From Planctomycetota bacterium (GTDB lineage: Bacteria; Planctomycetota; UBA8108; SXIK01), in assembly GCA_965223265.1 (NCBI GenBank), contig OZ244999.1, forward strand, positions 3,712,001-3,776,000: a stretch of DNA of 64,000 nt. Reading direction: 5' to 3'. Below are positions 17,978 through 36,911 of this stretch, in pieces (position 1 is the stretch's first letter; each line of letters starts with the position of its first letter). The notes under the pieces are model-generated. The model was not told the origin of the DNA. It saw nothing but the letters and a program-made list of their open reading frames with translations, and did not search any database. The translations under genes and the position numbers were made by a program.

Positions 17978-18691
17978 ATGATCAGCCGCAGCCAGCTCGA
18001 AGTCGTTGGACTCACCAAAGCGTACACGACTCCGACCGAGCCGCTCAGCGTTCTCGAAGCACTCGAACTATCGATGCAGCCCGGCGATTCCGTCGCCATC
18101 ACCGGGCCGTCGGGGTGCGGTAAGAGCACGCTCCTTCACATCCTCGGAACGCTCGATCGGCCAACCGCAGGAAGCGTCCGCCTCGGTGAGACGGACCCGT
18201 TCGAGCTCGGCGAAAAGGAGCTGGCCCGCTTCCGTGGTGAGAAGATCGGCTTCGTTTTCCAAGATCACCACCTGCTTCCACAGTGCACCGCAGTCGAAAA
18301 CGTCCTCGTGCCCCTTCTCGCCGCGGGTGGTGTCGACGACGCCGGTCGCCAACGCGGCGCGCAGCTACTCAAGCGTGTCGGGCTGGCCGACCGCGCGACC
18401 CATCGCCCGGCGGAGCTGTCGGGTGGTGAACGCCAGCGGGTTGCCATCGCGCGCGCTCTGATCCGCGATCCCGATCTCGTTCTTTGCGACGAACCGACGG
18501 GAAATCTCGACCCAAGCTCCGCCGCCGCGGTTGCAGACCTTTTTCTTGACCTCCATGCCGAAGGCGATGGCCTCCTCATCGTTGTGACGCATAGCCTAGA
18601 GCTCGCAGCCCGGTTTGGACGTCACTTGGAGCTGGACGACGGTAAGTTGGTGGACGCTGCCAGCAGCAACAAAACGGAGCCAACTCGCTAG
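17978..18691 (+). CDS. ABC transporter ATP-binding protein (LolD/MacB type)
   Basis: GPSGCGKST, GFVFQDHHLL, LSGGERQR, DEPTGNLD, VTH. Confidence 0.93.
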   Translation: MISRSQLEVVGLTKAYTTPTEPLSVLEALELSMQPGDSVAITGPSGCGKSTLLHILGTLDRPTAGSVRLGETDPFELGEKELARFRGEKIGFVFQDHHLLPQCTAVENVLVPLLAAGGVDDAGRQRGAQLLKRVGLADRATHRPAELSGGERQRVAIARALIRDPDLVLCDEPTGNLDPSSAAAVADLFLDLHAEGDGLLIVVTHSLELAARFGRHLELDDGKLVDAASSNKTEPTR

Positions 18692-18713
18692 GCGCTTTTC
18701 TTAGGCAGGCGCG

Positions 18714-21700
18714 ATGTCAACACGCAAGCGATTTGATCTCAGCAATCTCGCCTGGCGCGGCTTAAGCCATCATCGACGCGCGTATGTAGCAGCAGTGCTG
18801 GCGGCGGCGACGGCGACAGCGATCATCTGCGGTGCATTCTTCGTTGGCGATTCTGTGCGCGGCAGCCTCGAAGCACGCGTCCTCGATCGCCTGGGTCGCA
18901 TCGATCAACTCGTCGAAACGACGGGGTGGGTGCGCCGCGAGCTAGCGACCGAGCTCGAGTCCGACCCGTCGAACGAATCCAACGAGCGAGCAACAGGCGG
19001 CGTCACGGCCGTACCACTGATCATTCAGCGAGCGACGGTGATTCACGCTGACAGTCAGGCGCGTTCGAATACAGTGACGATCTACGGCGTACCGGCGCGC
19101 TTCTGGAGCCTCTGGCCGCACGGTGAGAGAAACGAGACTGAGTTCGCCGACCTTGGGCGCCGTCGTCATGGCTGGCTCAACGCCGAGCTGGCAGATGCCG
19201 TGGGTGCCAAAGCAGAAGAGTCAGTGCTGGTCCACTTGGAGAAACCCAGCGACATTGCGGCTGAGCACCCACTTGGAGAGCGAACGGAACGGCTCCGCCC
19301 GCTGCGTCTGAAAGTGCGCCGGCTCGTTCCGAACGAGGGCGCCGGGCTGTTTCGGCTCGACCAAGGTCAAGGTCCGGTGCACAACCTTTACGTGCCGCTC
19401 GAGATGCTGGGTCGGGCGCTCGAGCGTGAAACCGAGGCCAACGCCATCGTTGTGGCTGCCGGAGAGTTGTCCCCGGAGGCGACGACGACCCGTCTCCACA
19501 CCGCGTGGCATTTGGAAGACGCGGGACTGCGCTTCGAGGTCGACGGCGAACGCGGCTACGCCCGCCTCGAGAGCCGGGAGCTTCTTCTCAGCCCAGCCGT
19601 CCTCGAAGCGGCGAGCAAAACGGCGTTTGATTTGGATGGCCTGACGCTCGAGTCACTGACCTACCTCGCCAACACGATGCGAGTCGGCGAGCGTGAAATT
19701 CCCTACTCCACGGTCACAGCGCTCGGCGTTTGGGAGTCGCAAAGCGGAGCGGTTGCGCCAGCGCTCGCGGCGTTGGCACCTGGTGCCCTCAAAACCGACA
19801 CGATCAACACTGGCGCGCCGCCTCCGTCGATCGTTCTCAACGACTGGGCTGCGGAGGATGCGCAAGCGCAAATTGGCGACACGGTCCGCCTGACCTATTA
19901 CGTCGTCGACGAGCAGCACCAGCTAACGGACGCAGATGTCGATTTTCGCCTCAGCAGCGTCGTAGCGCTGAGCGGTGACGCTGCCGATCCGCATTGGACG
20001 CCGACGTTTCCTGGCGTCTCCGATGCTGACACGCTGCAGTCGTGGGACCCGAGCTTTCCGGTGGACCTCTCGCGCGTGCGGGACAAAGACGACGACTACT
20101 GGGAAGAACACCGAACGACACCAAAGGCGTTCGTCGCACTGGCGAGCGGCAAGGAACTTTGGGCGAGCCGCTTCGGCGTTGCCACGTCGCTGCGTGTACG
20201 ACCCATGCCGCAGCCGGAGGGGGAGAAGGACGGGGACGGGGATGACGCAGAAAGCGACGACTCGCAGCGCCTCGACTCCTGGGCCGCAAAGTTCAAGAGC
20301 ACCCTCCTCCGTGAACTCTCGCCGTCTCAGGTTGGTCTCAGCGTCCAACCGATCCGAGCGATGGGACTCGAATCGGCGCGCGGCGCCACGGACTTCACCC
20401 TCCTTTTCGTCTCGTTCAGCTTTCTCCTCATCGTCGCCGCAGTCGTTCTGCTGACACTCGTTTTTCGGCTCGCCTGCGAGCTCCGATTCGCGGAATTCGG
20501 CACGCTGATGGCGGTCGGCTTCGAACGCCAGAAGGTGCAGTCGCTCCTACTTCGTGAAGGGCTGGGACTGCTCGTCTTCGGCGCGCTCCTCGGTGCCGTC
20601 GCGGGGGTTGCCTACGCGTCTGTTCTCGTCACCGGACTCAAAACGCTGTGGCAAGGCGCGGTCAACGCGCCGTTCCTTCAGCTGCACGTCAGACCGCTGA
20701 GCGTCCTCGCGGGCGCTGGGATCACATGCGTTCTCTCGTTCGTCATGATCTGGCTGGTAGCGCGCCGCGCCAGTCGCCTCGCGCCGGCAAGGCTCTTGGC
20801 AGGCGACACGACAGATCCCGGCGATGGCCAGAGGCGCGCCACCAGATTCGCCGCGCGTTGGCAGTGGTTTGTCGCTCTCGCGCTCGGCGTTGGCGCGGCT
20901 GCGCTTGTGATCTACGGCGCAGCCGTCACCGTGTCTCGACCGGAAGCGATTTTTTTCACTGCTGGGGCGATGAGTCTGGCCTCGGGGCTTCTGACTTTTT
21001 GGATTCTGATCCGCGGCCGCAAGGACTCCGTGCTTCCAGGGCGAGGCCGTGCCGCGCTGTTTTTGTTGGCGGCGCGCAATGCTGGGCGCTCCCCAGGGCG
21101 TAGTCTTTTGACAGTTACCGTGTTGGCAGCGGCGGCGTTTCTCGTCGTTGCCGTCGCGGCTCAGCGTCGCGACGTCAGCCAGTCCACGCCCGACCCTGCG
21201 TCCGGTGATGGCGGTTACGCTCTCATGGCGCGCTCCTCAGTGCCGCTGACGCAGTCGCTCGCAACTGATGCTGGGCGGGAGTCCTTGCAGATCGGCGACG
21301 AGACGCGCCGGCTGCTCGATGCAGCATCCGGGCTGCACGCCTTCCGGGTGCGCCCAGGAGACGACGCCAGCTGCCTCAACCTCTATCGACCCCAATCACC
21401 CCGGATCCTGGGCGCCCCAGCTGGCTTCGTCGCGCAAGGCGGATTTCGCTGGGCGCAGTCGCTGGCAGAAAGCGAGGCGGAGAAGGAAAACCCGTGGCGT
21501 CTCCTCGACCGGGAGTTCCCCGACGGCGCACTCGCCGCAGTCGGCGACCTGAACACCGTCATGTGGATCCTCCACGCCGGCCTTGGTGACACGGTCGAAG
21601 TCGTGGACGATCACGGCCGCACGGTGAAGCTGAGGCTCGTCGGACTGCTGTCACACAGCATCTTTCAGAGCGAACTTGTCATCAGCGCGCAAGCTTTTGT

Positions 21701-22244
21701 TGGCGCGTTCCCACAACTGACGGGCGAGAGCTTTTTCCTCGTCGGCAGCGGACAAGAAGACTCGCCCCAGCTGGCCACCGCTCTTGAAGCCGATTTATCC
21801 GACTGGGGATTCGACGTCACGTCGACAGGCGAGCAGCTGGCGGCGTTCAAACGCGTCGAGAATACCTATCTATCGACGTTTCAAATCCTCGGCGGGCTGG
21901 GCCTCCTCCTGGGGACGCTCGGACTCGCGGTCGTCCTCTACCGCAACGTCACGGAACGGCGCGGCGAGCTGGCGCTTTTGCGTGCGGTCGGCTTTGCCAG
22001 CCGTTCGATTGCCTGGCTGGTCTTCAGCGAAACGATTCTTCTTCTCGGCGTCGGCGTCGTCATCGGCGGTGGCTCCGCTCTGTTAGCGGTCGCCCCGCAG
22101 CTCGCCTCCGCGGCGAGCGAAGTCGACACCCTCGGGCTTGTAGTGACGCTCGTGGTGATCCTAGCCAGCGGCCTTCTTGCGGCGGTGGGAGCGCTGCGCG
22201 CTGCGCTCAAGGCGCCGCTCTTGCCGGCGCTTAGGGCGGGGTGA
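18714..22244 (+). CDS. ABC transporter permease with tandem FtsX/MacB-type units
   Basis: Two repeats of TM - large periplasmic domain - TM bundle; ERRGELALLRAVGF motif. Confidence 0.85.
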   Translation: MSTRKRFDLSNLAWRGLSHHRRAYVAAVLAAATATAIICGAFFVGDSVRGSLEARVLDRLGRIDQLVETTGWVRRELATELESDPSNESNERATGGVTAVPLIIQRATVIHADSQARSNTVTIYGVPARFWSLWPHGERNETEFADLGRRRHGWLNAELADAVGAKAEESVLVHLEKPSDIAAEHPLGERTERLRPLRLKVRRLVPNEGAGLFRLDQGQGPVHNLYVPLEMLGRALERETEANAIVVAAGELSPEATTTRLHTAWHLEDAGLRFEVDGERGYARLESRELLLSPAVLEAASKTAFDLDGLTLESLTYLANTMRVGEREIPYSTVTALGVWESQSGAVAPALAALAPGALKTDTINTGAPPPSIVLNDWAAEDAQAQIGDTVRLTYYVVDEQHQLTDADVDFRLSSVVALSGDAADPHWTPTFPGVSDADTLQSWDPSFPVDLSRVRDKDDDYWEEHRTTPKAFVALASGKELWASRFGVATSLRVRPMPQPEGEKDGDGDDAESDDSQRLDSWAAKFKSTLLRELSPSQVGLSVQPIRAMGLESARGATDFTLLFVSFSFLLIVAAVVLLTLVFRLACELRFAEFGTLMAVGFERQKVQSLLLREGLGLLVFGALLGAVAGVAYASVLVTGLKTLWQGAVNAPFLQLHVRPLSVLAGAGITCVLSFVMIWLVARRASRLAPARLLAGDTTDPGDGQRRATRFAARWQWFVALALGVGAAALVIYGAAVTVSRPEAIFFTAGAMSLASGLLTFWILIRGRKDSVLPGRGRAALFLLAARNAGRSPGRSLLTVTVLAAAAFLVVAVAAQRRDVSQSTPDPASGDGGYALMARSSVPLTQSLATDAGRESLQIGDETRRLLDAASGLHAFRVRPGDDASCLNLYRPQSPRILGAPAGFVAQGGFRWAQSLAESEAEKENPWRLLDREFPDGALAAVGDLNTVMWILHAGLGDTVEVVDDHGRTVKLRLVGLLSHSIFQSELVISAQAFVGAFPQLTGESFFLVGSGQEDSPQLATALEADLSDWGFDVTSTGEQLAAFKRVENTYLSTFQILGGLGLLLGTLGLAVVLYRNVTERRGELALLRAVGFASRSIAWLVFSETILLLGVGVVIGGGSALLAVAPQLASAASEVDTLGLVVTLVVILASGLLAAVGALRAALKAPLLPALRAG

Positions 22245-22323
22245 GGCGCGACAAAGATTTCCACCGGAGTTTTCGCCTCAAGGCACGCGCGACCCGGCCG
22301 TTTGAAACCGCAAAGGGCAACGC

Positions 22324-22988
22324 ATGTGGACCAACATCTTTCCTCTGGCCGGCATGGCTGTCGGGACATACCTTGTTTACGCTTTGGCAGAATCTGGGCT
22401 TGAGATGGAGAACTGGGTTCGAGTTTTGGCAAGCGCTGCCATCCCGGTGGCTCACACTTGTTTCGGATTCTACATCGGTGCCCGCATCGATCGCATGCGA
22501 GTCAACCGCTTCATCGGTCGACACACCGAAAAAAACGATCCCGGCGCTACAAAGCGCGGTCGTGTTGCCCGTCTCGTCGAGCTCTGGTGGGTGGTACTGA
22601 GGCTAACGCTTCCGGTGTCGTGCATTTTGGCCAGTCTCTTTCTTCCTCAGTGGCTACGGCAGAACTTCCCTGATGCGACCTTCGTAGCATGGTTGTTAAT
22701 AGCGTTGCAGATTGTTCTCATCCGGCACATCACTCTGGTGGTGCGGGAAGAGCTCGCAGTCCGTCAAACCCACCGCGACCTCAAGGCTCTCTCGAGCCGC
22801 TGGGCATGGTTCGATTGGAATGTGATCGAAGCGCGTGTCCAGAAAATAGCGCCGGCGCTCAGCCGCCTACGAAGCGGAGACCCGATAGAAGACGCGGCTG
22901 ACTTGTTCGATCCTGACTTTTTGCATATGGAGCAGCAGATCCTCGAGAAGGCCGCCAACGAAGAAATAACGAGTGTTTCTGACGTCTC
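22324..22988 (+). pseudogene. 5' half of a membrane-anchored Tim44-like domain protein, cut at the left inversion junction
   Basis: Four hydrophobic helices, then ..FDWNVIEARVQKI..FDPDFLHMEQQILEK..SVSDVS; stops at the junction; continues in frame into 25696-25292 (minus strand) if the segment is re-inverted. Confidence 0.7.
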
Positions 22989-23305
22989 TTGAGAGATCGC
23001 AGAAGTACTTTGAGGATGTCTTCAACTTTCGGTGCACTCCACATCCGAGCGACGGCGGCACTGTGTGTGTCGAATCGCCACATGTTCACCTCTTTCTCCA
23101 ACAGGCTCGAGGCGCCGCAGAGTTCCTTCGTCAGCAACACCTGTCGTTCGAGGTTGCAGACCTTGAGTGCGTCATCGAGTCGCTCCAGCTTCGAGGCGAG
23201 ACGTATGAAGTGGGTCTCTTCGACGCCTTCGAACATCGAAACTATCGCTGGTGCGAATGGCGTGGTCCAGACGAGATCCGGCTGGAGTGTGTCCAAGTCC
23301 TCTAA
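22988..23305 (+). pseudogene. 3' part of a VOC/glyoxalase-family gene lacking its first beta-strand and His
   Basis: LERSQKYFEDVF...QHLSFEVADL...GPDEIRLECV; an in-frame TAA lies just upstream; the missing N-terminus is at 25749-25699 (minus strand). Confidence 0.75.
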
Positions 23306-23317
23306 TCGTGCGGTTTC

Positions 23318-25222
23318 TCACCTCGGAGTGAACTTTCGCCTCTCCTTCGTCTGGCGCCACGTGACGACGACACTCCGAGGCGGCACGTCGACGGCTTGAG
23401 TTTGAAATCTTTGAGATCCAAAATTCGCGACGATGTCGATTTGATCTCCGAAGACCGTCTTCTGAACGGATCGATCCGGCGATAGCCAGACGAAGTCAGT
23501 CAGTGGAAGGAGTGTGAGCTCACGATGGAGCGGCGAGAAGAACTTGTAGTGCGCGCTTATGCGTGCTCGGTGTTTTTCAAGTTCCTTCATGTTCAGATGG
23601 TAGAGCGGCGGCACGTTGTAGAGCAGCTCCCACAGCTCTGTCGTTTGCACCTGGTCACGGAACTTCAGGCTGGCACGCCCCCAGTGGTGTGTGACGACGA
23701 CTGAGTCGTTGAACACCACTTGATAGAGCGGCAGCAAGAAACGAGGGTCGCGAAAGTAGCGGTAGCTCGGCTTCAGCGGCACCTGCATCATGAAGACTCT
23801 CGGGGCATTTGGAGGCCAATAGCCGCCGAGCCAGTATTCGGAGTCCCTATTCTTGAGGTCAGGGTCGCCCCACCCTAGCGTTGGGGCCGTGACTCCATGC
23901 GCGAAGTGGATGTTTCGCGCGACAAGATAAGCCCCACCTTCCGAACCGATGACCGCGCCGTGGGTGCGGTTGATCCACGCCAGTCGGTCGATCCGGGCGC
24001 GCAGATCGTCGAGCTGTGAAGCGGGGCGGATTTCAGAATAGTCATCGAACCATTGGCCGAACGCATCGCAATCGACGAAACACGAATTGAAAGCGTGTGT
24101 CGCCATGATCCCATTGACTCGCTTCTCGACGTAGGGACGGGCAGCGATCGGGCTCAGTACGTAGCCTTTGCCTCGAAAGCCTTGCCGCTTCGTTCCGTCC
24201 ATGTTCATGATCGGGCCGGTTTCGTAGAGTTCCAAGTCGAACTGGGCCGTCACCCAAGTATCCTTCTCCTCCGGATGGTGAATGCTGTGGTATGAGTCGT
24301 ATGGCCCCATGAGGAAGCCCAAGTCGGCAGCTCGGGTTGGTAGTTCTGGTTGGTCCGCCGCGACGTCCAAATCGTTCAGTGTCAGACACATGCGATCGAG
24401 GCCATACGATTTGAGTCGCTCGAGCATTTGCATGGAAACGCCATCTCCCCAAAGGTATGCGTGAGCGGCACCCAGGAGTCGTTCGGCGCGAGGCGTTTGT
24501 CGCAATTTGGCATCGATTCCGACGAATTCTCTCCGACTCGTGAGCCAGCGGCGGAATTGCCTGGCCGGCTCCACCGGCGATGGAGGTCCGAACCGTACGA
24601 CGACGCCGAACTCCTTCCGTTTTCGATTTCTTGTGAATCGATGCGTCGCCTGAAGCGCGAGCGTGTCGCCCTCTGACCGATAGAGCAGATCGGTGTTGAA
24701 CGGATTCGTGAGGATGAAGGTCAGCGAGCGAGTCTTGAGGTGTAGCCCCCAAAACGGCATGGACAACTCCGTCACTCTGAACGACTGATCCGCGAGATAC
24801 TCCCGCCAGACAGTATCGTGCGGCGGGATATACCAGCCGCACGAGTGAGGGACAACGTACCCTTCGACTTCTGGCGCCGCCTTGACGACCGGCCACGTCA
24901 GGTCTTGTTCGCGCTCAGAGATAAAGTTGACGACGAGTTCGTCGGCTCTCAGCCGACACTGTACGTTCAATGCCAGTTCCGGAAGATGCCACGATGCGGT
25001 GTTGCCGTGGACTTTGAGACGAGCAACTGCAGATGCAGTCTTCCGCGGTTCAGAGAGGTTGAGCCGTTCGCCTCCCGGGAAGACGATCTCGATTTTTATG
25101 TTGGACGGATCGATGACAGCTGTCTGCCCGGAATGCGAGAGGCGCACCGCGTCGCCTGCAGTTGCGATCGCACTCCATCCAACAACCATCCAGACGATCA
25201 CTCTAACGTTTGGCGGCTGCAT
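23318..25222 (-). CDS. Secreted glycoside hydrolase, GH129/GH101-related family
   Basis: Signal peptide after an AAGGAG RBS (start 25222); RLLGAAHAYLWG, GFLMGPYDSYH, FVDCDA, VIGSEGG, PLYQVVFNDSVVVTHHW. Confidence 0.65.
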   Translation of the reverse strand: MQPPNVRVIVWMVVGWSAIATAGDAVRLSHSGQTAVIDPSNIKIEIVFPGGERLNLSEPRKTASAVARLKVHGNTASWHLPELALNVQCRLRADELVVNFISEREQDLTWPVVKAAPEVEGYVVPHSCGWYIPPHDTVWREYLADQSFRVTELSMPFWGLHLKTRSLTFILTNPFNTDLLYRSEGDTLALQATHRFTRNRKRKEFGVVVRFGPPSPVEPARQFRRWLTSRREFVGIDAKLRQTPRAERLLGAAHAYLWGDGVSMQMLERLKSYGLDRMCLTLNDLDVAADQPELPTRAADLGFLMGPYDSYHSIHHPEEKDTWVTAQFDLELYETGPIMNMDGTKRQGFRGKGYVLSPIAARPYVEKRVNGIMATHAFNSCFVDCDAFGQWFDDYSEIRPASQLDDLRARIDRLAWINRTHGAVIGSEGGAYLVARNIHFAHGVTAPTLGWGDPDLKNRDSEYWLGGYWPPNAPRVFMMQVPLKPSYRYFRDPRFLLPLYQVVFNDSVVVTHHWGRASLKFRDQVQTTELWELLYNVPPLYHLNMKELEKHRARISAHYKFFSPLHRELTLLPLTDFVWLSPDRSVQKTVFGDQIDIVANFGSQRFQTQAVDVPPRSVVVTWRQTKERRKFTPR

Positions 25223-25291
25223 GCTCTTCGCTCCTTTCGTGCGCCGTGTGTCTGCGTCGGCGAGGAGCACTCGGGGCTTGAAATCAGAGGC

Positions 25292-25696
25292 TCAAACGCT
25301 TGGTTTGTGATCAGCTTGATCGCCCGCTTGTGATCCTCGCTCTGCTTCGCTCCTACCCCGAAGTTCCTTCGCACTCTCTTCCGACCCACTCCCTGATTGC
25401 GCGTGCCGTCGGTGTGACTCTGTGCGTCTCTCCAGGTGCACAGTCGACGTCTGGTTGTTCTCGCGGACAAGACTGTACCCCGCGGAACCTTCCGCAACGC
25501 CGCACAGCTGCCAGTTCACGCCCGTGTGGACCAACCACCAGATGAAGCAGTGGTTCTGCTCTGCGTGTCGCCCCTCGAGAAGTGTCCCTGAGTCATCCTC
25601 GATGAAATCGATGAGCCTCAGGCGAACCTCAACGCTCACCAATGTCTCCCGGTCTTCTGTCTCCGCGAAGACGGAAACTGGACGTATGCGTTTGAT
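25292..25696 (-). pseudogene. 3' half of the Tim44-like domain protein
   Basis: IKRIRPVSV..VSVEVRLRLIDFIEDDSGTLLEG..FIWWLVHTGVNWQLCGV resembles the Tim44/NTF2-like C-terminal strands; no convincing start of its own. Confidence 0.7.
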
Positions 25697-25698
25697 CG

Positions 25699-25749
25699 AG
25701 ATGAGCAGACCAGAAGGCACACATGGTCGATCGACCGCGGGAGAATCAC
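25699..25749 (-). pseudogene. 5' end of the VOC gene (MILPRSIDHVCLLVCSS)
   Basis: GTG start with upstream GAGG, 32 nt after the NUDIX stop; IDHVCLLV is the VOC first strand with its metal-binding His. Confidence 0.75.
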
Positions 25750-25781
25750 TGTCACCTCACTATCAGGCTGCTATAATTGGC

Positions 25782-26240
25782 TCACACTTCGTCCTGCTGC
25801 ACGGCCCAGCAGTGACTCTCGTGTGTCAGTAGACTAAGCGCCTCCACCGTGGAAACCCAGATCAGCTCGTGTCCCGGCGCAGCCGTGGTCGCTGCGGAAT
25901 CGATCAGAGCCGCGCTGAAGAAGGTGCTACGCTTGTCGAAGTACGCGCCTTCGCTCTCGGCATGAACAAGCTGGCTAGCGACGCCGAGCGGCGAGATGAC
26001 CTCGGCCGTGAAGCCGCACTCCTCTCTCACTTCGCGCAGCACAGTGTCCTCAAGCGACTCGGCAGGTTCCTGGCCGCCGCCCGGAAGAAAGACTCCTTCG
26101 ACGGTCCTGACGAGAGCGACACGGTGATGCGCGTCGCGAACGACTCCGTATGCACTCGGGCGCAGCGTATACTCGTGGCCTGGCTCACGCTCACCAAACT
26201 GCGGCGGATCGCTGAAAGTTGGGGCGTTTCCTGATGACAT
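25782..26240 (-). CDS. NUDIX hydrolase
   Basis: Nudix box GGGQEPAESLEDTVLREVREECG. Confidence 0.9.
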   Translation of the reverse strand: MSSGNAPTFSDPPQFGEREPGHEYTLRPSAYGVVRDAHHRVALVRTVEGVFLPGGGQEPAESLEDTVLREVREECGFTAEVISPLGVASQLVHAESEGAYFDKRSTFFSAALIDSAATTAAPGHELIWVSTVEALSLLTHESHCWAVQQDEV

Positions 26241-26372
26241 GAACTGATCGGATCTCGGTGCCCTTCAAGAGTTTCCTTGCAGCCAGCCGCGCGGCGACCA
26301 CGGCGCCCTACGGTTCGTGGACGCTGTGGTTTTGATTCAACTCGCGATCTTTCCCGTCTTCTTCAGAGACAC

Positions 26373-27056
26373 TCACCGGGTATCCCGTTGCAGCTGGTAG
26401 ACCGCCCGGATGCGGCGGACGTCTTCTTCGTACGGATCCACGAACTCGTCGACGCTCTGCAGACAGAGCTCGGCGGCAGAGCAGAAGCTTTCGCATTCCG
26501 CCCGCGTCAGCGGCCAGGGCATCTCGCCGCGGTCTTCTCCCTTTTCCCGTGCTCGACAGATCACCAGCAAGACCCCTCGCGGAGCCAAGCACGACGCCAG
26601 ACAGACGATCGCCTGGCCGCGGAGCGCTTCTGGGAGCACCTGCAGCGTGTACACTTCGACCACCAGATCAAACTTTCCAAGCCACGACGGCCTCGGCTCG
26701 AACAGGTCAGCCGCGACGTAGTCGACCTTCGATCCAGCGAATCTCCTCCGGCACCAATCGATCGCCGTCGGCGCGATGTCGAACGCCGTCGTCTCGAAGC
26801 CGGCAGTGGCGAGCGCCTCGGCGTCATCCCCGAGACCGCAGCCGACGACGAGACAGGCTCTCCCCGACTCGCCCGGAGGCTGCCCGCGCAGCCAGTCGCG
26901 TAGGTGCGGATTCGGCCGCAGGTCCGCCCACGGAATGGTCGACGCCTCCCCGCCGCTGGCGCGGTAGAAAGGCTCAAACCACCCCAGCGCGTCGCCCTGC
27001 GCCAAATACGAATTGGCAAGCTCTCGCGCCAAACGTCGCGTGTCGGGATCTTTCAT
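26373..27056 (-). CDS. Class I SAM-dependent methyltransferase (thiopurine methyltransferase-like)
   Basis: GWFEPFY, IPWADLRPNP, LVVGCGLGDDAE, FDIAPTAI, PWPLTRAE; start moved to ATG 27056. Confidence 0.85.
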   Translation of the reverse strand: MKDPDTRRLARELANSYLAQGDALGWFEPFYRASGGEASTIPWADLRPNPHLRDWLRGQPPGESGRACLVVGCGLGDDAEALATAGFETTAFDIAPTAIDWCRRRFAGSKVDYVAADLFEPRPSWLGKFDLVVEVYTLQVLPEALRGQAIVCLASCLAPRGVLLVICRAREKGEDRGEMPWPLTRAECESFCSAAELCLQSVDEFVDPYEEDVRRIRAVYQLQRDTR

Positions 27057-27154
27057 GAGACTCACCATACAATGGCTCGGACCACAATGCTTGCCGCTTC
27101 CCTGCTGCCGTCGACGTTGACTCGTCACGCTTCTGTGCGTAAAAGGAGCTCCAA

Positions 27155-27991
27155 TTGACCGCACTTCGCCACTTCGCATTTACACTCGGCATCCTCAGCG
27201 GCTGCGCGACACAGCACGGCGCCGTCGAGGTGTTTCAGTTCTTCGAGCCCATCCGCCCACCGCGTGCTGTGCAAGTGGTAGCACACCGCGGAGCTGCCGC
27301 GCGAGCACCTGAGAACACTCGCCCCTCGATTACGCACGCGATCGAGGCCGGTGTCGAGTGGGCCGAGCTCGACGTGCGCCGGACGCGCGACGGCCATCAC
27401 GTTCTCTTTCACGACCGCACGCTCGATGCGAAGACAAACGGCAAAGGTCGCCTTGAGGATCACACTCTCGCCGAGCTCAAGGAACTCGACGCCGGTTCGT
27501 GGTTCGCGCCGCGCTTCGCTGGCGAAAAGCTGCTGACGCTTGCTGAGGCGCTTCGCTTGACGAAAGGGAAAATCAATCTCAATCTCGACCTCAAGGCAGT
27601 GAATCACCGGCAGCTCGTAGAGGAGATCCACGCTGCGAAGATGGAACGCCAAGTGATCGTCTACGATAGCGTCGAAGACCTGAAGCGCTTGCAGAAGATC
27701 TCTGCAGGCAAGATCGCCATCATGGCGAAGTGGGAACCGAAGTTGGGCTTCGACGCCTGGATCGCCGAGCTCAAACCGCATTCGGTTGAAGTCGACGCGG
27801 ACGACATCACTGCAGATGTCTGTCGTCGCTTCCGCGCCAAAGGAATCATTGTCGAGGCCAAGATGCTCGGAGAGGCGTGGGATCACGCGGACTACTGGGA
27901 AGAGATGATCGTGGCGGGCGTCCAGCAGCTGCAGACGGACTTTCCCACGCAGGTCCGCGATCACATTCTCGCGCGCCGACCGACGAAGTGA
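27155..27991 (+). CDS. Glycerophosphodiester phosphodiesterase family protein, probable lipoprotein
   Basis: LSGC lipobox, VAHRGA, PENT, ELDVRRTRDG, HD, QTDFP. Confidence 0.88.
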   Translation: MTALRHFAFTLGILSGCATQHGAVEVFQFFEPIRPPRAVQVVAHRGAAARAPENTRPSITHAIEAGVEWAELDVRRTRDGHHVLFHDRTLDAKTNGKGRLEDHTLAELKELDAGSWFAPRFAGEKLLTLAEALRLTKGKINLNLDLKAVNHRQLVEEIHAAKMERQVIVYDSVEDLKRLQKISAGKIAIMAKWEPKLGFDAWIAELKPHSVEVDADDITADVCRRFRAKGIIVEAKMLGEAWDHADYWEEMIVAGVQQLQTDFPTQVRDHILARRPTK

Positions 27992-32164: not shown

Positions 32165-34228
32165 TCACTGCGACGAGCCCTCGGCTCGCCCTGCCTTAGC
32201 GCAGAGGCGGTTCAGCGCCGATGCAGAAAAGATCAGCGGATAAAGCTTCTCGTAGTACCATAGGTTCGCGAAATAAAAACCGATAGGTGTCGGCCGCTCG
32301 AGGCAGCCGGATGCAACCGCGCTCAGGAGCCACTCCGCGCCGCGCTCGATCCGTGCACTGTGCCGCCCCAAAGCGCCATCCGACTCCGTGAGTGCGCTGA
32401 GGGCCATCGCGGTCTCTTCCACCGACGAAATCATCGGCGCGGGCGCGGGAGCACGCCCACAGGCTGAGGCCGCGACGCCGTCGCCACCCCAGCCTCCATC
32501 GCGCTGCTGGACGCCCGCGAGCCAATCGCTCCCACGCTTGACCATCGCCGCGATCGTGCCCGCATCAGCCCAGCCATGACAAGCGCGCTCCCTCGGAGAC
32601 CCCGGTGTCACAAGTCGCGCCAGCGCATCGAGAACACGGGACGTTCCGTAGACAGGATTCTCGAATCCCTCGGCAACTTCATTGCCGAACCAAAGCGGCA
32701 CCCACGCCCCGTCACCACGCTGCGCCCGTTCGAGGTAGGCGACCAAACGGCGAGCGGCACGGTCGACACGCGCGCCGAGCGCCGGCTCCAACTCGTGGCG
32801 CCAAACAGAAAACGCCGCCAGAACGTGCGCCGAGAGATCAGCGCCGCTGCGATCGAACGGCAAGTTTCCCCAGCCGCGGCAAAACGTCGGGATGCCGCCG
32901 TCGCGATTCTGCACTCCCAGGAGCCAGTGGACGCCACGCGCAGCAGCCTCGCGCACGCGTGAGTGTTCGCGTGAGTGCTCGCGCGGCAGAGCGTTGAGCG
33001 CGAGAAGCGCCCCGGCGGTGTCGTCCGCGTCGGGCACTCCACCGCTCAGATCCGTCCACGCCCAACCGCCCGGTGGTGACATCGTGTAGAAGTGAACGTC
33101 GCGGTACTGCTGCTCAAGCAGCCAGCTCCGCACCGACGCCGCGTCCAGCGCTTCAATTTGATGCTGTGGCCCCGCAGCCAAAGCGTTCACACTGAGCGTC
33201 GTCACCCACGTTGCCAGGTTGGTGTCAATCGGCCAGCTTCCATCATCCCGCACCGAGGACTCGAGAAACCGGATCGCCGACCTCGTCACCGGATGCTCGC
33301 TCTGGCCGCAGCCCGCCAGGCTCATGGCGACGAACGACGTCAGTGGCACGGCCTCGAGAAAGCCGCCGCTTTCGGGTTGAATCGTCTGCAGTAGCCTGAG
33401 CGTTCGCCGTCGCGTCTTGTTGCGAACCGCGCGTGAGAACGGATTCGACGTCGGCAAATGGTGATGCCGCACTTGTCCGATCGCGATGAGCGCTGGAAGC
33501 GCATAACTCACGACGGGCAAACCGAGAAATCTGAACCACGAGCGAGGCAGCGATGCGAGCTCGAAGGGAAGCTGCTTCACGAGATGCCAAGCTTCCTTCT
33601 CCGAACCGAGCGCACCGGCAAGCGCACAGTGGGTCAGAATCGGAACGGAAAACGTGCGATCTTCGCCATAGGACGAGGTGATCGCCGCTGCCAGCGAGCT
33701 CACATCGTCACCACCCACCGCCGCGTCGATCCACGCTCGTGCCCGATCGATCGCGATGCGCTCTGCGTCGCCCGACTTCCCAGCGCACACGAGCGCGGCC
33801 CAGCATAGGGTCGTTGTGCTCAGGTTGCTCCGACTGCGCACCGTATCTCCCCAACCGCCGTCGTCGTTTGCATGTTCGACGAGCCAAGAGAGGCCTCGCT
33901 CGACGAGTCGTGCGTGCGAAGCAGCACCCGAAGGCACTTCTTCAGGCGTCACCCGCTCGGCGTCAAACATCGTCAGTGCCAGAGACGCAGTGGCAGTTGA
34001 CAGCGCGCTCGTCGAGAGTTCACCACTCCAGTGGGAGTGGTCTTGACGCGCAAGAAGCAGATCGACAACCTCGTCACGTGCTTTTTCTAACCGAGCAATC
34101 AACTGCGGCGAAAAACTAATGTTGGAGGTCACAGGTGTGTCGTCAAGTAGCTGTTTCGTGAACCGAGCGGACCGATTTGCGCCAAAAGGCGAGTGCACAC
34201 GAGGTGAAGAACGTGAAACATCATCCAA
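32165..34228 (-). CDS. Squalene-hopene cyclase-like class II terpene cyclase (true start may lie about 30 codons downstream)
   Basis: Catalytic VPDADDTA (DxDD); QW-type repeats NDDGGWG, QPESGGF, RDDGSWP, QNRDGG, QRGDGAW, QQRDGGWG; PIGFYFANLWYYEKLYP. Confidence 0.85.
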   Translation of the reverse strand: MDDVSRSSPRVHSPFGANRSARFTKQLLDDTPVTSNISFSPQLIARLEKARDEVVDLLLARQDHSHWSGELSTSALSTATASLALTMFDAERVTPEEVPSGAASHARLVERGLSWLVEHANDDGGWGDTVRSRSNLSTTTLCWAALVCAGKSGDAERIAIDRARAWIDAAVGGDDVSSLAAAITSSYGEDRTFSVPILTHCALAGALGSEKEAWHLVKQLPFELASLPRSWFRFLGLPVVSYALPALIAIGQVRHHHLPTSNPFSRAVRNKTRRRTLRLLQTIQPESGGFLEAVPLTSFVAMSLAGCGQSEHPVTRSAIRFLESSVRDDGSWPIDTNLATWVTTLSVNALAAGPQHQIEALDAASVRSWLLEQQYRDVHFYTMSPPGGWAWTDLSGGVPDADDTAGALLALNALPREHSREHSRVREAAARGVHWLLGVQNRDGGIPTFCRGWGNLPFDRSGADLSAHVLAAFSVWRHELEPALGARVDRAARRLVAYLERAQRGDGAWVPLWFGNEVAEGFENPVYGTSRVLDALARLVTPGSPRERACHGWADAGTIAAMVKRGSDWLAGVQQRDGGWGGDGVAASACGRAPAPAPMISSVEETAMALSALTESDGALGRHSARIERGAEWLLSAVASGCLERPTPIGFYFANLWYYEKLYPLIFSASALNRLCAKAGRAEGSSQ

Positions 34229-34270
34229 CAGCTCGCTGACTGGCCAGCCTGAAGTTGTGGGCGAGAGGCA

Positions 34271-35230
34271 TCACTCGACGAGCGCCAAATGACCCAAGGC
34301 GAGGAGACCGTAGTACGTGTATTCGCAATCTAGGACATCGTCAGCCCAATGGCCGAGAAAGCCGCCACGGTTTGTCCACAATGAGTCGACGAAGTCGAGA
34401 CACGGCTCTCTGAGGTGGTCGAACGATCGCTGCTGGCCGGCAAGAGCGTGCAGCGCCGTTGCCGTCGACAAGAGATCAGGTAACGGTGTCGCCGGCGCGG
34501 CGCGAAAGCCGCCCTCCACATAGCACGCGTCCAGGAGCCACTTGCCGACGTCGTGCTCCAGAGTGAACTCGAGGTGCCGAGCGATCGTCGCGGCGGCGGC
34601 GGCGGCCGGCGTCGTGCCGCTGAGCGCTGCTGGCTGATTGCCGTACGATCCGTCCGCGGTTTCCATCGCCTGCACAGTCGCGGCAGCGCGTTCTCTGTCG
34701 AGGAGCCCAGGAGCGGAGTCAAAGGGTGCGTCCTGTTCGATCCCAAGCATCAAAAACACATCGTAAACGGTTTCGAACTCGCGCTCGGTTTCGAAACGAG
34801 GACTCGGAGCGGCGCCGGAGCCTGACGCCGTGGTGGCATCACGCTCGGACGGCTCTCCTTCAGCGCCGCCGCGACGCAGCCGACGCGCGTGATCACGAAG
34901 GCGTAGACACTTGTCGGCCTCGAGCGACGCGTCCGGAAGACTCGCCCAAGCACGCGCCAGGCACGCCAGGTGGACGAGATCGAGTCCCTCTCCGTCGCCG
35001 AACTCCTGCAGGTACGCAGCGATCTGCTTGCTCGGAATGTCTGCCTGAAGCGCCAGAAGACACTCGATGCCGAAAACCGTGTAGTAAAGATCGGCCTTCT
35101 CTTCCCGATCCGCGAAACCACCCTCGGGGAGCAGACGGCTCAGGACAAAGTCGCGAACGAGTTCGCTCGAGTCATGCAGAAGCCGTGGCGCCAGCCTGGC
35201 TACCTGCAGCATTTCGAGCCTCAAACTCAT
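34271..35230 (-). CDS. Prenyltransferase/squalene-oxidase-repeat (alpha/alpha-barrel) protein
   Basis: PEGGF..ADLYYT, ADGSYG, EGGF..PDLLSTATA, RGGF..DCEYTYYGLLALG repeats; no DxDD motif. Confidence 0.75.
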   Translation of the reverse strand: MSLRLEMLQVARLAPRLLHDSSELVRDFVLSRLLPEGGFADREEKADLYYTVFGIECLLALQADIPSKQIAAYLQEFGDGEGLDLVHLACLARAWASLPDASLEADKCLRLRDHARRLRRGGAEGEPSERDATTASGSGAAPSPRFETEREFETVYDVFLMLGIEQDAPFDSAPGLLDRERAAATVQAMETADGSYGNQPAALSGTTPAAAAAATIARHLEFTLEHDVGKWLLDACYVEGGFRAAPATPLPDLLSTATALHALAGQQRSFDHLREPCLDFVDSLWTNRGGFLGHWADDVLDCEYTYYGLLALGHLALVE

Positions 35231-36911
35231 TGCACCAACCTTTGATCTCGAGGTCGCCGAACACCTTGCCGAGGACGCGCCGCAGAAGCCCTTTCACGCT
35301 GGCATGCTCCACCCCCCAAAGTGTGCGTGTCGCTTCGTCCTTGTACGCCTCGAAGAGCTCTCGGCAACGCTCCTCGACGCCCAAGCGTGCCATCCTCTCA
35401 AGGATCTCCTGTGCATCAACACGATCGATCTCGCGTCGCCACAGCTTGCCGAAAAACTCACGATCTCGGCCTTTGGCACGGTCGTACGCCACCGCCAACG
35501 GCAACGTCGGCCGCAGCGCGACAAGATCGCTCGCTTCACTCGTGTCCGCAAGATCGTTCAGGTCATCCTGGATCTGATAAGCGATGCCCAGCGCGCGACT
35601 GAAATCCTCAATCGATGCGTCAAGACCCGTCTGGCCAGCAAGAACAGCGCCGAGCTTGAGCGCCACCTCGAAAGCTGGCGCTGTTTTCTCACGGAAAATA
35701 TTGACAACTTCGAGGGGAGCGAGCGGTCGCGGATCACGCGCCCAACAGAGCTCCGCCCCTTGGCCGCGGCAGAGCGTTCGATGTCCCACGGAGGCGACGC
35801 GTACGAGCTCCGCTATGGTCGCTCCGTCGGCTCCCGTGAGTGCGAGTTGACGGTAGCCCTCGCCGATCAAAAAGTCGCCAACATTAAGCGCCACAGCGAC
35901 CCCATACTCTGCGTGGAGGGTCTGCTCGCCGTAGCGGAGTGCATCCTCGTCCTCGATGTCGTCGTGAATCAGACTCGCCTTGTGAAAACACTCCACCGCG
36001 ATCGACACCCGCTTGAGGGCCTCGGAAGGCTCAGCTTGTGAATCGTCGTGCAGCGCCTGAAACACCGCTGCGGTGAGAAAGGGGCGCCATCGTTTGCCGC
36101 TGCGCGCCAGCCACTCGAGGGCGATCGATTCCGTCTCCCCTGCAGGTGCACCGAGATGCTTCTCTATAGTTTCAGAGTCGAACCAGCCACGCACTTCGTC
36201 GCGTAGTGCTGTCAGGTTGAGGCGTCGCGTCTTGTCTTCGCTGGTCAACTGAATCACGTCCCAGATCCACTCGAGATCCACGGATGTATCCACGCAGTCG
36301 TCTTGCAGTAGCGGAATGGCGACACCAGGAATTGCCGCAGCCTCCATGAAAGGAAAAGCACGCTCGAGAACACTGAGGCAACTGACGCCGACGATCGCAT
36401 CGATCTTACCCGTCTCGATGATCGCCATAACGATCGGCGAGCCCTCCGCCACCAAGACGGCGTAGCCAAGTCTCTCAGCTTCCGTCTGCAAGTCCTGAAT
36501 CGAACACATGCCGCACTTCTTGCACAGAAGGCCGAACTCGTCAAACGGCGCCGGGCAGTGCGCCTCGACGCGAAGACACTTGGGCAGCAGAAGCAGCCGT
36601 CGCTCGTACGGAATTGAAGCGAGGGTTTCGCGCCAGAGCTCGTTATTGATGAGTACAGCAGCGAAATCGAGGAACTTCGCGTCAACGTTTTCGACGGCGA
36701 CAAACTCTTGAGCCGCCTCCCTCAGGCCGGTCATCGGAATCGGCGGGACCAGTTCGCGACGCGCGACAAAAGACGCGACTTTGCGACGGACCCACTCCCG
36801 CTGCTCACGCGTGGCGGGAATGTTTTCTTGAGGCGCACGAGTGGGCGGCTGTGCAGCAAGAGTCGGCAGGATCTTGAGCGGGCTCGACAACGTGTTTCTC
36901 CAGTTCGACAA
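35172..36911 (-). CDS. DUF116-like Cys-rich domain fused to a polyprenyl diphosphate synthase
   Basis: N-half LLLLPKCLR..CPA..CKKCGMC..AEGS..VGVSC..DC; C-half GKRWRP, FARM DDIED, KT, SARM QIQDDLND. Confidence 0.85.
   Translation of the reverse strand: MSNWRNTLSSPLKILPTLAAQPPTRAPQENIPATREQREWVRRKVASFVARRELVPPIPMTGLREAAQEFVAVENVDAKFLDFAAVLINNELWRETLASIPYERRLLLLPKCLRVEAHCPAPFDEFGLLCKKCGMCSIQDLQTEAERLGYAVLVAEGSPIVMAIIETGKIDAIVGVSCLSVLERAFPFMEAAAIPGVAIPLLQDDCVDTSVDLEWIWDVIQLTSEDKTRRLNLTALRDEVRGWFDSETIEKHLGAPAGETESIALEWLARSGKRWRPFLTAAVFQALHDDSQAEPSEALKRVSIAVECFHKASLIHDDIEDEDALRYGEQTLHAEYGVAVALNVGDFLIGEGYRQLALTGADGATIAELVRVASVGHRTLCRGQGAELCWARDPRPLAPLEVVNIFREKTAPAFEVALKLGAVLAGQTGLDASIEDFSRALGIAYQIQDDLNDLADTSEASDLVALRPTLPLAVAYDRAKGRDREFFGKLWRREIDRVDAQEILERMARLGVEERCRELFEAYKDEATRTLWGVEHASVKGLLRRVLGKVFGDLEIKGWCNEFEARNAAGSQAGATASA

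Follow-up and report, generated by a model that had tools for sequence, protein, structure and literature searches.

Within the window, the 64-kb stretch of Planctomycetota DNA that was analysed, four gene pieces around positions 22324-25749 represent the complementary halves of two genes that lie on opposite strands. One of the genes encodes a Tim44-like membrane protein and the other a small enzyme of the VOC superfamily. An intact GH129-like gene lies between the pieces, and a NUDIX and a methyltransferase gene lie beyond them:

22324-22984, plus strand: 5′ part of the Tim44-like gene, with the transmembrane N-terminus and the first part of the Tim44-like domain
22324-22992, plus strand: open reading frame of this 5′ part as it stands, 222 aa, running into TGA at 22990-22992
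22985-22988: left junction, TCTC; refined 2-bp overlap (TC) at 22985-22986
22985-25704: inverted segment with refined, most likely breakpoints, ~2.72 kb, from a breakpoint scan and indel counts
22973-23305, plus strand: open reading frame holding the VOC C-part as it stands
22988-23305, plus strand: 3′ part of the VOC gene (glyoxalase/bleomycin-resistance/dioxygenase superfamily), 105 codons and stop
23318-25270, minus strand: GH129-like glycoside hydrolase gene, intact, within the inverted segment, 650 codons
25292-25704, minus strand: 3′ part of the Tim44-like gene, with the remainder of the Tim44-like domain, tail and stop codon
25292-25720, minus strand: open reading frame holding the Tim44-like 3′ part as it stands
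25698-25701: right junction, GAGA on the plus strand; refined 2-bp overlap (GA) at 25703-25704
25705-25749, minus strand: 5′ part of the VOC gene, beginning with the GTG at 25749 and left beside the NUDIX gene
25782-26240, minus strand: NUDIX gene (PF00293, 46.1 bits), same orientation as the VOC start
26373-27179, minus strand: methyltransferase gene (PF13649, 45.4 bits), same orientation as the VOC start

The 4-bp junction motifs and the open reading frames are located as the earlier note on this DNA had described them. From the GTG at 25749 (minus strand), a 17-codon open stretch can be read that now continues as a 37-codon chimeric frame. In gene calls, the products of the rearrangement appear as orphan 'proteins', of which there are three: P0001, P0002 and P0006, with 222, 80 and 115 residues. 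The GH129-like gene matched PF11308 with 345.5 bits over profile positions 1-323 of 324.

The two Tim44-like pieces were compared by means of a profile (A2, length 288) that had been built solely from homologs of the C-half, with the 144-residue fragment P0011 left out. Searching the genome with A2 yielded two matches on opposite strands and in complementary profile ranges: the N-half (window 22693-22968, plus strand) covered profile positions 50-142 (E = 1.3e-14), and the C-half (25340-25699, minus strand) covered positions 150-272 (E = 7.6e-20). Judged by these alignments, the match of two halves to adjoining parts of one profile is far beyond chance. With the C-half alone as query, eight full-length homologs of 259-318 aa were retrieved and matched in their C-terminal parts. 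The window's own fragment (P0006) and a repeat protein of 1592 residues that was taken to be unrelated (P0009) were left out of this set, while P0011 was used in the script alignments and the breakpoint-scan profile but stayed outside the eight counted homologs. The N-half (residues 124-222), which was absent from that query, aligned directly before the C-half match in 8/8 homologs. For instance, the N-half fell on residues 58-157 and the C-half on 159-252 of P0016, and the corresponding ranges in P0010 were 13-112 and 114-244. When both halves were joined by script, each of the eight homologs gave a single junction-spanning alignment of approximately doubled score, as the earlier note had anticipated for the rebuilt protein. 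The homologs are distant (24-37% identity). Six of the eight passed the cut-off of the Pfam Tim44 family (PF04280, 29.6 bits), and the ortholog in genome G107 reached 38.1 bits; homology to these members suggests that the split gene is of the same kind.

The VOC gene showed an equivalent split. Homologs of its C-part are 123-126 aa long, share 50-59% identity and cover 97-99% of the piece, and most of them carry PF00903, so that the gene probably belongs to this superfamily. The C-part is devoid of the N-terminal strand and its His, a residue present in 120/120 homologs. This conserved His is encoded by the 17-codon piece that became detached, and it aligned with the His of all 120 homologs. 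Moreover, the 17-codon start beside the NUDIX gene matched the N-termini of homologs that had been found with the other piece (3/3 close homologs), and the re-inverted protein aligned across the junction from residue 1 to 121/122 in each of these three comparisons. In contrast to members of PF04280 and PF00903, the fragments at this locus lie below the Pfam cut-off when taken singly: the Tim44-like halves, each tested unjoined, gave no match even at E = 10, and the VOC C-part gave a weak match to Ble-like_N alone (E = 0.1, profile positions 12-39 of 41). A word-indexed protein search with the Tim44-like N-half returned the fragment itself and nothing else.

A scripted flip of 22989-25697, the segment proposed in the earlier note, produced uninterrupted reading frames of 356 and 122 codons. 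The proposal of a hidden inversion that splits two genes, both of which are restored by flipping, was thus borne out by homology that spans the junctions. We assume, with a probability of roughly 80%, that the 2.7-kb segment is a real chromosomal inversion that split two unrelated genes in a one-off, non-programmed and recent end-joining event, most likely at 22985-25704. The exact reconstruction in the earlier note restored the frames, but its breakpoints left opposite errors of +1 residue (VOC) and -1 residue (Tim44-like). If the flip is made at the 4-bp TCTC/GAGA, the VOC protein has 14 residues at the junction versus 13 in 120/120 homologs, so the extra residue already suspected from the usual spacing is real, and the Tim44-like protein is one residue short at the junction compared to 8/8 homologs. 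Both length anomalies vanish upon a flip of 22985-25704 with a 2-bp TC/GA overlap. In a scan of 55 breakpoint variants, all nine in which the Tim44-like gene gains a codon at the expense of the VOC gene outranked the other 46 (315.7-320.3 bits versus 308.4 bits for 22989-25697, a flip that is equivalent up to 22985-25701). As TC at 22985-22986 mirrors GA at 25703-25704, flips of 22986-25703 and 22987-25702 are equivalent to 22985-25704, and as scores within the favoured variant class differ by 3.7 bits or less, a single cut within it cannot be fixed. The breakpoints proposed earlier are therefore probably off by 3 bp, and the ancestral genes would have comprised ~357 codons (Tim44-like, plus strand) and ~121 codons (VOC, minus strand). 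This ancestral state was deduced from distant homologs, since the un-inverted allele is absent from the relatives and metagenome contigs searched.

Alternatively, the same inversion might have arisen by exchange within the 4-bp TCTC/GAGA, in which case the ancestral proteins would have measured 356 and 122 residues. Inverted identity of this length is present at the junctions, both frames are restored, and a priori 4 bp of microhomology would serve as a substrate more readily than 2 bp. Type II topoisomerases cut with a 4-bp stagger, and a gyrase-type exchange would suit. We nevertheless regard this version as unlikely: it ranked 14th of the 55 variants and requires two independent coincidences of opposite sign, both of them at the junctions, namely a VOC insertion found in 0/120 homologs and a Tim44-like deletion found in 0/8. 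Indel parsimony in loop regions thus argues for the 2-bp overlap. A further variant, raised in the earlier note, adds to the inversion a duplication of the 3-bp TCT at a staggered cut (ancestral VOC 121 codons, Tim44-like 356). This duplication removes the VOC anomaly but mends that length alone, with the Tim44-like protein still lacking a residue that 8/8 homologs have at the junction, and it demands an extra step, whereas the plain flip of 22985-25704 accounts for both lengths without gain or loss; we grant it a slight chance. Where both ends of an inversion fall into conserved genes, length errors of opposite sign may thus be a better guide to the breakpoints than the longest microhomology.

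The inverted order was recovered from four public runs (X1-X4; two samples of one study). In each run, both junctions are contained in one independently assembled contig, which showed 0 differences, and alternative joints were not seen. The runs are possibly the assembly's own source, so that their independence is not full. According to another suggestion of the earlier note, the inverted order could be an assembly or amplification chimera and the organism truly un-inverted. Like chimeric joints, the junctions show almost no homology. However, both were reproduced identically in four separate assemblies from two samples, and a chimera would yield one bad joint rather than two balanced ones with all bases retained. 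Given that one contig per run spans both junctions in 4/4 runs, an artefact of this type is very unlikely, and we leave it the faintest of chances.

We also considered a programmed or recurrent reversible switch, as the earlier note had done, which would turn off the Tim44-like and VOC genes together and re-wire the GH129 gene behind the methyltransferase-NUDIX pair. The exchange is exact, balanced and in principle reversible. The inverted order alone was seen in 4/4 runs, without alternative joints, although this evidence consists of assembled contigs with a k-mer depth of 5.6-10.2, from which rare variants drop out, so that an un-inverted minority orientation would be invisible. Against a switch, no inverted repeats beyond 4 bp occur at the junctions: 97 inverted pairs were detected in 22700-26000, and none of the 25 longest is located at 22985/25700, in accordance with the 4 bp of inverted identity noticed before. 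Likewise, the earlier statement that the window holds no recombinase or IS stands at the Pfam level, where no recombinase, resolvase, invertase, integrase or transposase family was detected in 51 long ORFs (6 + 45, with 11 of the second set lacking any family). The partners that would be 'on' together are, moreover, unrelated and have no conserved neighbourhood. Taken together, the switch lacks support and appears highly improbable. The small hairpin (ATCTCT-TG-AGAGAT) pointed out at the restored VOC junction is not statistically notable: the left junction as it stands folds with -6.6 kcal/mol (z = -1.78), 13/200 shuffles fold as well, and the right junction is inconspicuous (z = -0.58).

In invertons, as described in one report (10.1101/2023.03.11.532203), site-specific recombinases flip DNA at paired inverted repeats and both orientations coexist. 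As in invertons (invertible promoters, 'partial intergenic' invertons/shufflons and intragenic ones), the flipped segment ends inside coding sequence and changes which proteins can be made. Unlike in invertons, whose inverted repeats typically measure 10 bp or more, no repeats longer than 4 bp are present here, no recombinase was found in the window and one orientation was seen. Recurrent reversible exchange that needs no more than the 2-4 bp of inverted identity also seems hardly probable to us, whether driven by an enzyme that escaped recognition or by the small quasi-palindrome of the VOC junction; if true, two genes would be switched on and off, and GH129 would alternate between two upstream gene sets.

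In the favoured one-off inversion, the ends of two breaks would have been joined the wrong way round, sharing 2-4 bp at most, which left four fragments and an intact GH129 gene that now faces the opposite way. Illegitimate inversions, non-homologous or based on microhomology, arise when double-strand breaks are mis-joined, either by Ku/LigD end joining in bacteria or by exchange through type II topoisomerases. Like these, the present rearrangement is balanced, every base being retained and none added, has no repeats or mobile elements, and ends at arbitrary places within genes. The genome encodes Ku (PF02735, 154.3 bits) and a LigD polymerase domain (TIGR02778, 240.2 bits), both over the cut-off, and an ATP ligase adjoining Ku that scored just below it (TIGR02779, 216.2 bits; cut-off 227.75). 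With these NHEJ-type genes, a junction overlap of 2-4 bp, within the 0-4 bp expected of end joining, and no long homology, the signature would fit end joining, and it would look the same after illegitimate exchange of the topoisomerase type; NHEJ, topoisomerase action and template switching would agree with the results alike. Of the three explanations put forward in the earlier note, a recent microhomology inversion is the one that fits. All fragments are free of further stops or frameshifts, suggesting that the inversion is recent. Both split genes are presumably dead, the VOC gene because its piece is without the first strand and the conserved His, and the Tim44-like gene because its domain is cut mid-way. 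Among the records listed by literature searches, no bacterial case of such an illegitimate inversion was found; the examples were mostly eukaryotic, including a human gene-disrupting inversion (PMC4591017).

The inversion opens no new mechanism. It represents a clean natural case, resolved to the base pair, of a balanced inversion in which neither repeats nor mobile elements are involved, and may be a footprint of end joining in the wild. The genome that carries it is large, at 9.18 Mb, and comes from an apparently uncultured bacterium. Hidden inversions of this type are rarely noticed and create false orphans and pseudogenes.

The gene neighbourhood was compared with other genomes. None of 40 related genomes carries the Tim44-like N-half, the C-half or the VOC gene, so the un-inverted synteny is not readable from kin, and a scan of metagenome contigs with a 25-base word from the left flank gave 0 matches. 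At 7/7 VOC loci from genome contigs, relatives of NUDIX, methyltransferase or GH129 were absent within 4 kb, and neither a Tim44-like/GH129 nor a methyltransferase/NUDIX/VOC neighbourhood occurred among the other loci examined. The proposed operons (GH129 behind the Tim44-like gene, VOC behind methyltransferase/NUDIX) would follow from gene geometry, and a promoter/terminator scan remained at chance level (1 promoter-like site versus 0.9 expected). The Tim44-like ortholog of G107 is flanked by a protein kinase gene and a redoxin-domain gene. GH129 relatives were found in 6/40 related genomes, and the ortholog in G005 (56% identity) is located behind a DUF4382 gene.

The window (G000:C1:3712001-3776000) lies within a single 9,179,496-bp contig. 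Around the segment the following features were assigned (positions in the window):

22324-22992, plus strand: N-half frame of the Tim44-like membrane protein gene, 222 codons (ORF listing)
22973-23305, plus strand: frame of the 105-codon VOC piece (ORF listing)
22985-22988: TCTC at the left junction (sequence)
23318-25270, minus strand: GH129 gene, 650 codons (PF11308, 345.5 bits, full-length domain)
25292-25720, minus strand: C-half frame of the Tim44-like gene, 142 codons (ORF listing)
25698-25701: GAGA at the right junction (sequence)
25749, minus strand: VOC start piece, a 17-codon open stretch from GTG (translation)
25782-26240, minus strand: NUDIX gene (long ORF)
26373-27179, minus strand: methyltransferase gene (long ORF)

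The earlier note had read this arrangement as an inversion splitting two genes. This core was confirmed: we observe a genuine, non-programmed inversion that breaks both genes and is apparently fixed. Of the accompanying ideas, a switch gained no support, a chimera is very unlikely, and the exact breakpoints are probably slightly off.

Three homologs of the 105-codon VOC piece were found (123–126 residues, 50–59% identity), and their N-termini matched the 17-codon piece adjoining the NUDIX gene. As had been anticipated, the rejoined VOC protein aligned across the junction with all three, from residue 1 to 121/122, raising the scores from 114–124 to 132–137 bits. Since neither Pfam (no match for either Tim44-like piece alone, even at E 10) nor 40 related genomes (no homologs of either piece) matched the second gene, an exhaustive HMMER search was conducted with the C-half only. 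It returned 11 proteins at E ≤ 0.001, of which eight were counted as full-length after leaving out the window's own fragment, a 1592-residue repeat protein and a 144-residue fragment. In each of these eight (259–318 residues, 24–37% identity) the C-half match started at about residue 114–177, while six exceeded the Pfam Tim44 cut-off with a domain crossing the point equivalent to the junction. The N-half, which had played no part in finding the homologs, aligned with 8/8 and always directly before the C-half match (e.g., 58–157 and 159–252 in homolog P0016; 13–112 and 114–244 in P0010). The script-rejoined protein gave one junction-crossing alignment in all eight at about twice the score, as predicted. 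As a check without any joining, 401 genomes of the phylum were screened with a profile of the eight homologs. The genome under study yielded two matches, at 22693-22968 on the plus strand (profile 50–142, E 1.3e-14) and at 25340-25699 on the minus strand (profile 150–272, E 7.6e-20). Elsewhere only genome G107 contained a full-length match; some match occurred in 39 of the 400 other genomes, mostly as Tim44-like domains within larger ORFs.

Re-inverting 22989-25697 by script indeed opened frames of 356 and 122 codons, in agreement with the earlier note. Any frame-preserving shift of both flip ends fits the present sequence, and the homologs must therefore decide. With that 4-bp TCTC/GAGA exchange the VOC protein is one residue too long, a discrepancy already suspected and found to be real: 14 residues separate the conserved His from the conserved aromatic residue, versus 13 in 120/120 homologs (those listed of 145 matches), and the length gap sits two residues from the junction. 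The Tim44-like protein, conversely, is one residue too short against 8/8 homologs, with the gap at the junction, a stretch in which these homologs show no length variation among themselves. Opposite-sign indels at both ends of one event are the expected product of a 3-bp error in one breakpoint. A 3-bp TCT duplication, as also proposed, would mend the VOC length only and is hardly credible. Among 55 distinct breakpoint variants scored against homolog-only profiles, all nine with 357 + 121 codons ranked first (315.7–320.3 bits summed), while the 356 + 122 geometry came 14th (308.4 bits) and is improbable although it leaves both frames open. The 120-member VOC profile alone gave 157.2–161.8 bits for 121-codon and 153.8–156.2 bits for 122-codon variants. 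We thus place the breakpoints in the one-codon-shift class with a probability of roughly 0.8, so that the original ones are probably 3 bp off. Because scores within this class differ by ≤3.7 bits, the exact cut is left open; most overlap is offered by flip 22985-25704 (equivalent to 22986-25703 and 22987-25702), with 2-bp TC/GA.

Four public sequencing runs (two samples, one study) contain the stretch, and in each of them one separately assembled contig carried the inverted order across both junctions with 0 differences. In run X4 the full 5.5-kb stretch takes two contigs, one of which (22769-27000) spans both junctions. No joints were reported in the run contigs, and the 18 loose ends listed of 24 all arose from 17–26-base chance matches, none at the junctions. 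This evidence consists of contigs at depth 5.6–10.2, which are blind to a minority orientation, from runs that may be the assembly's own source. Since one contig bridged both junctions in every run, an assembler chimera or amplification artefact is very unlikely.

A reversible switch, the other option raised, showed no sign of a programmed system. Invertons are defined by the action of recombinases on pairs of inverted repeats (10.1101/2023.03.11.532203). In contrast, this segment has no inverted repeats above 4 bp at its ends, none of the 51 long ORFs scanned across the window matched a recombinase, integrase or transposase family, as the earlier note had remarked, and only the inverted orientation was seen in the contigs of the four runs. 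The exchange is base-balanced with an overlap of 2–4 bp, a pattern characteristic of two breaks whose ends were rejoined in the wrong orientation. The genome is equipped for such rejoining: it encodes Ku (PF02735, 154.3 bits), an adjoining ATP-dependent DNA ligase (TIGR02779, 216.2 bits, just below the family cut-off of 227.75) and a LigD polymerase domain (240.2 bits), which looks like a two-locus end-joining kit. The Ku and ligase genes (L034, L036) lie at G000:C1:3639547-3641339, outside the window, preceding the left junction by about 93 kb; a LigD polymerase domain and a ligase domain share a separate 711-codon frame at C1:8893943-8895292. Exchange by a type II topoisomerase or two template switches would produce an identical scar, and the three routes are inseparable here. 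We give end joining a little under an even chance. The hairpin proposed at the restored VOC junction did not exceed shuffled controls, nor did a 41-nt hairpin possible at the present left junction (22970-23010; z −1.78, 13/200 shuffles folding equally well), which is thus probably due to chance. The VOC side mirrors the word TTCTG...TCTC of the Tim44 side, and the pre-flip direct similarity between the sites (about 9/13 bases) is probably fortuitous as well.

As a consequence, the Tim44-like gene would now stop at a TGA one codon beyond the junction, its domain severed mid-way, and the VOC start piece would run into a 37-codon chimeric frame, leaving a VOC body presumably devoid of the first strand with its conserved His. 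The intact GH129 gene would have moved from behind the Tim44-like gene to a position downstream of methyltransferase-NUDIX. The event looks recent, since all fragments are free of new stops and frameshifts. At the other loci examined, neither a Tim44-like/GH129 nor a methyltransferase/NUDIX/VOC neighbourhood proved to be conserved; the putative operons are therefore read from gene geometry.

The inversion adds a case to a mutation type that is already known and introduces no new mechanism; its value is that of a clean example and an annotation warning, since in the protein collections the fragments are entered as three singletons (P0001, 222 aa, 22324-22992; P0002, 80 aa, 23065-23305; P0006, 115 aa, 25292-25639), and public gene calls thus take each piece for an orphan gene of its own.

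G+C amounts to 0.557–0.59 at 22500-26000 versus 0.63–0.665 at 18000-22000. A GH129 relative is present in only 6/40 related genomes and the Tim44-like and VOC genes in 0/40; the three genes may form a small acquired patch. The NUDIX-VOC spacer contains a sigma-70-like site (25749-25777, plus strand, 10/12, extended −10 TG) directed away from the VOC start; one such match in 21800-27600 against 0.9 expected is at chance level. At 32168-36911 on the minus strand, a squalene-hopene cyclase-like gene, a prenyltransferase-repeat gene and a DUF116-polyprenyl synthase fusion stand in a row, a terpenoid/hopanoid-type cluster that is unrelated to the inversion.
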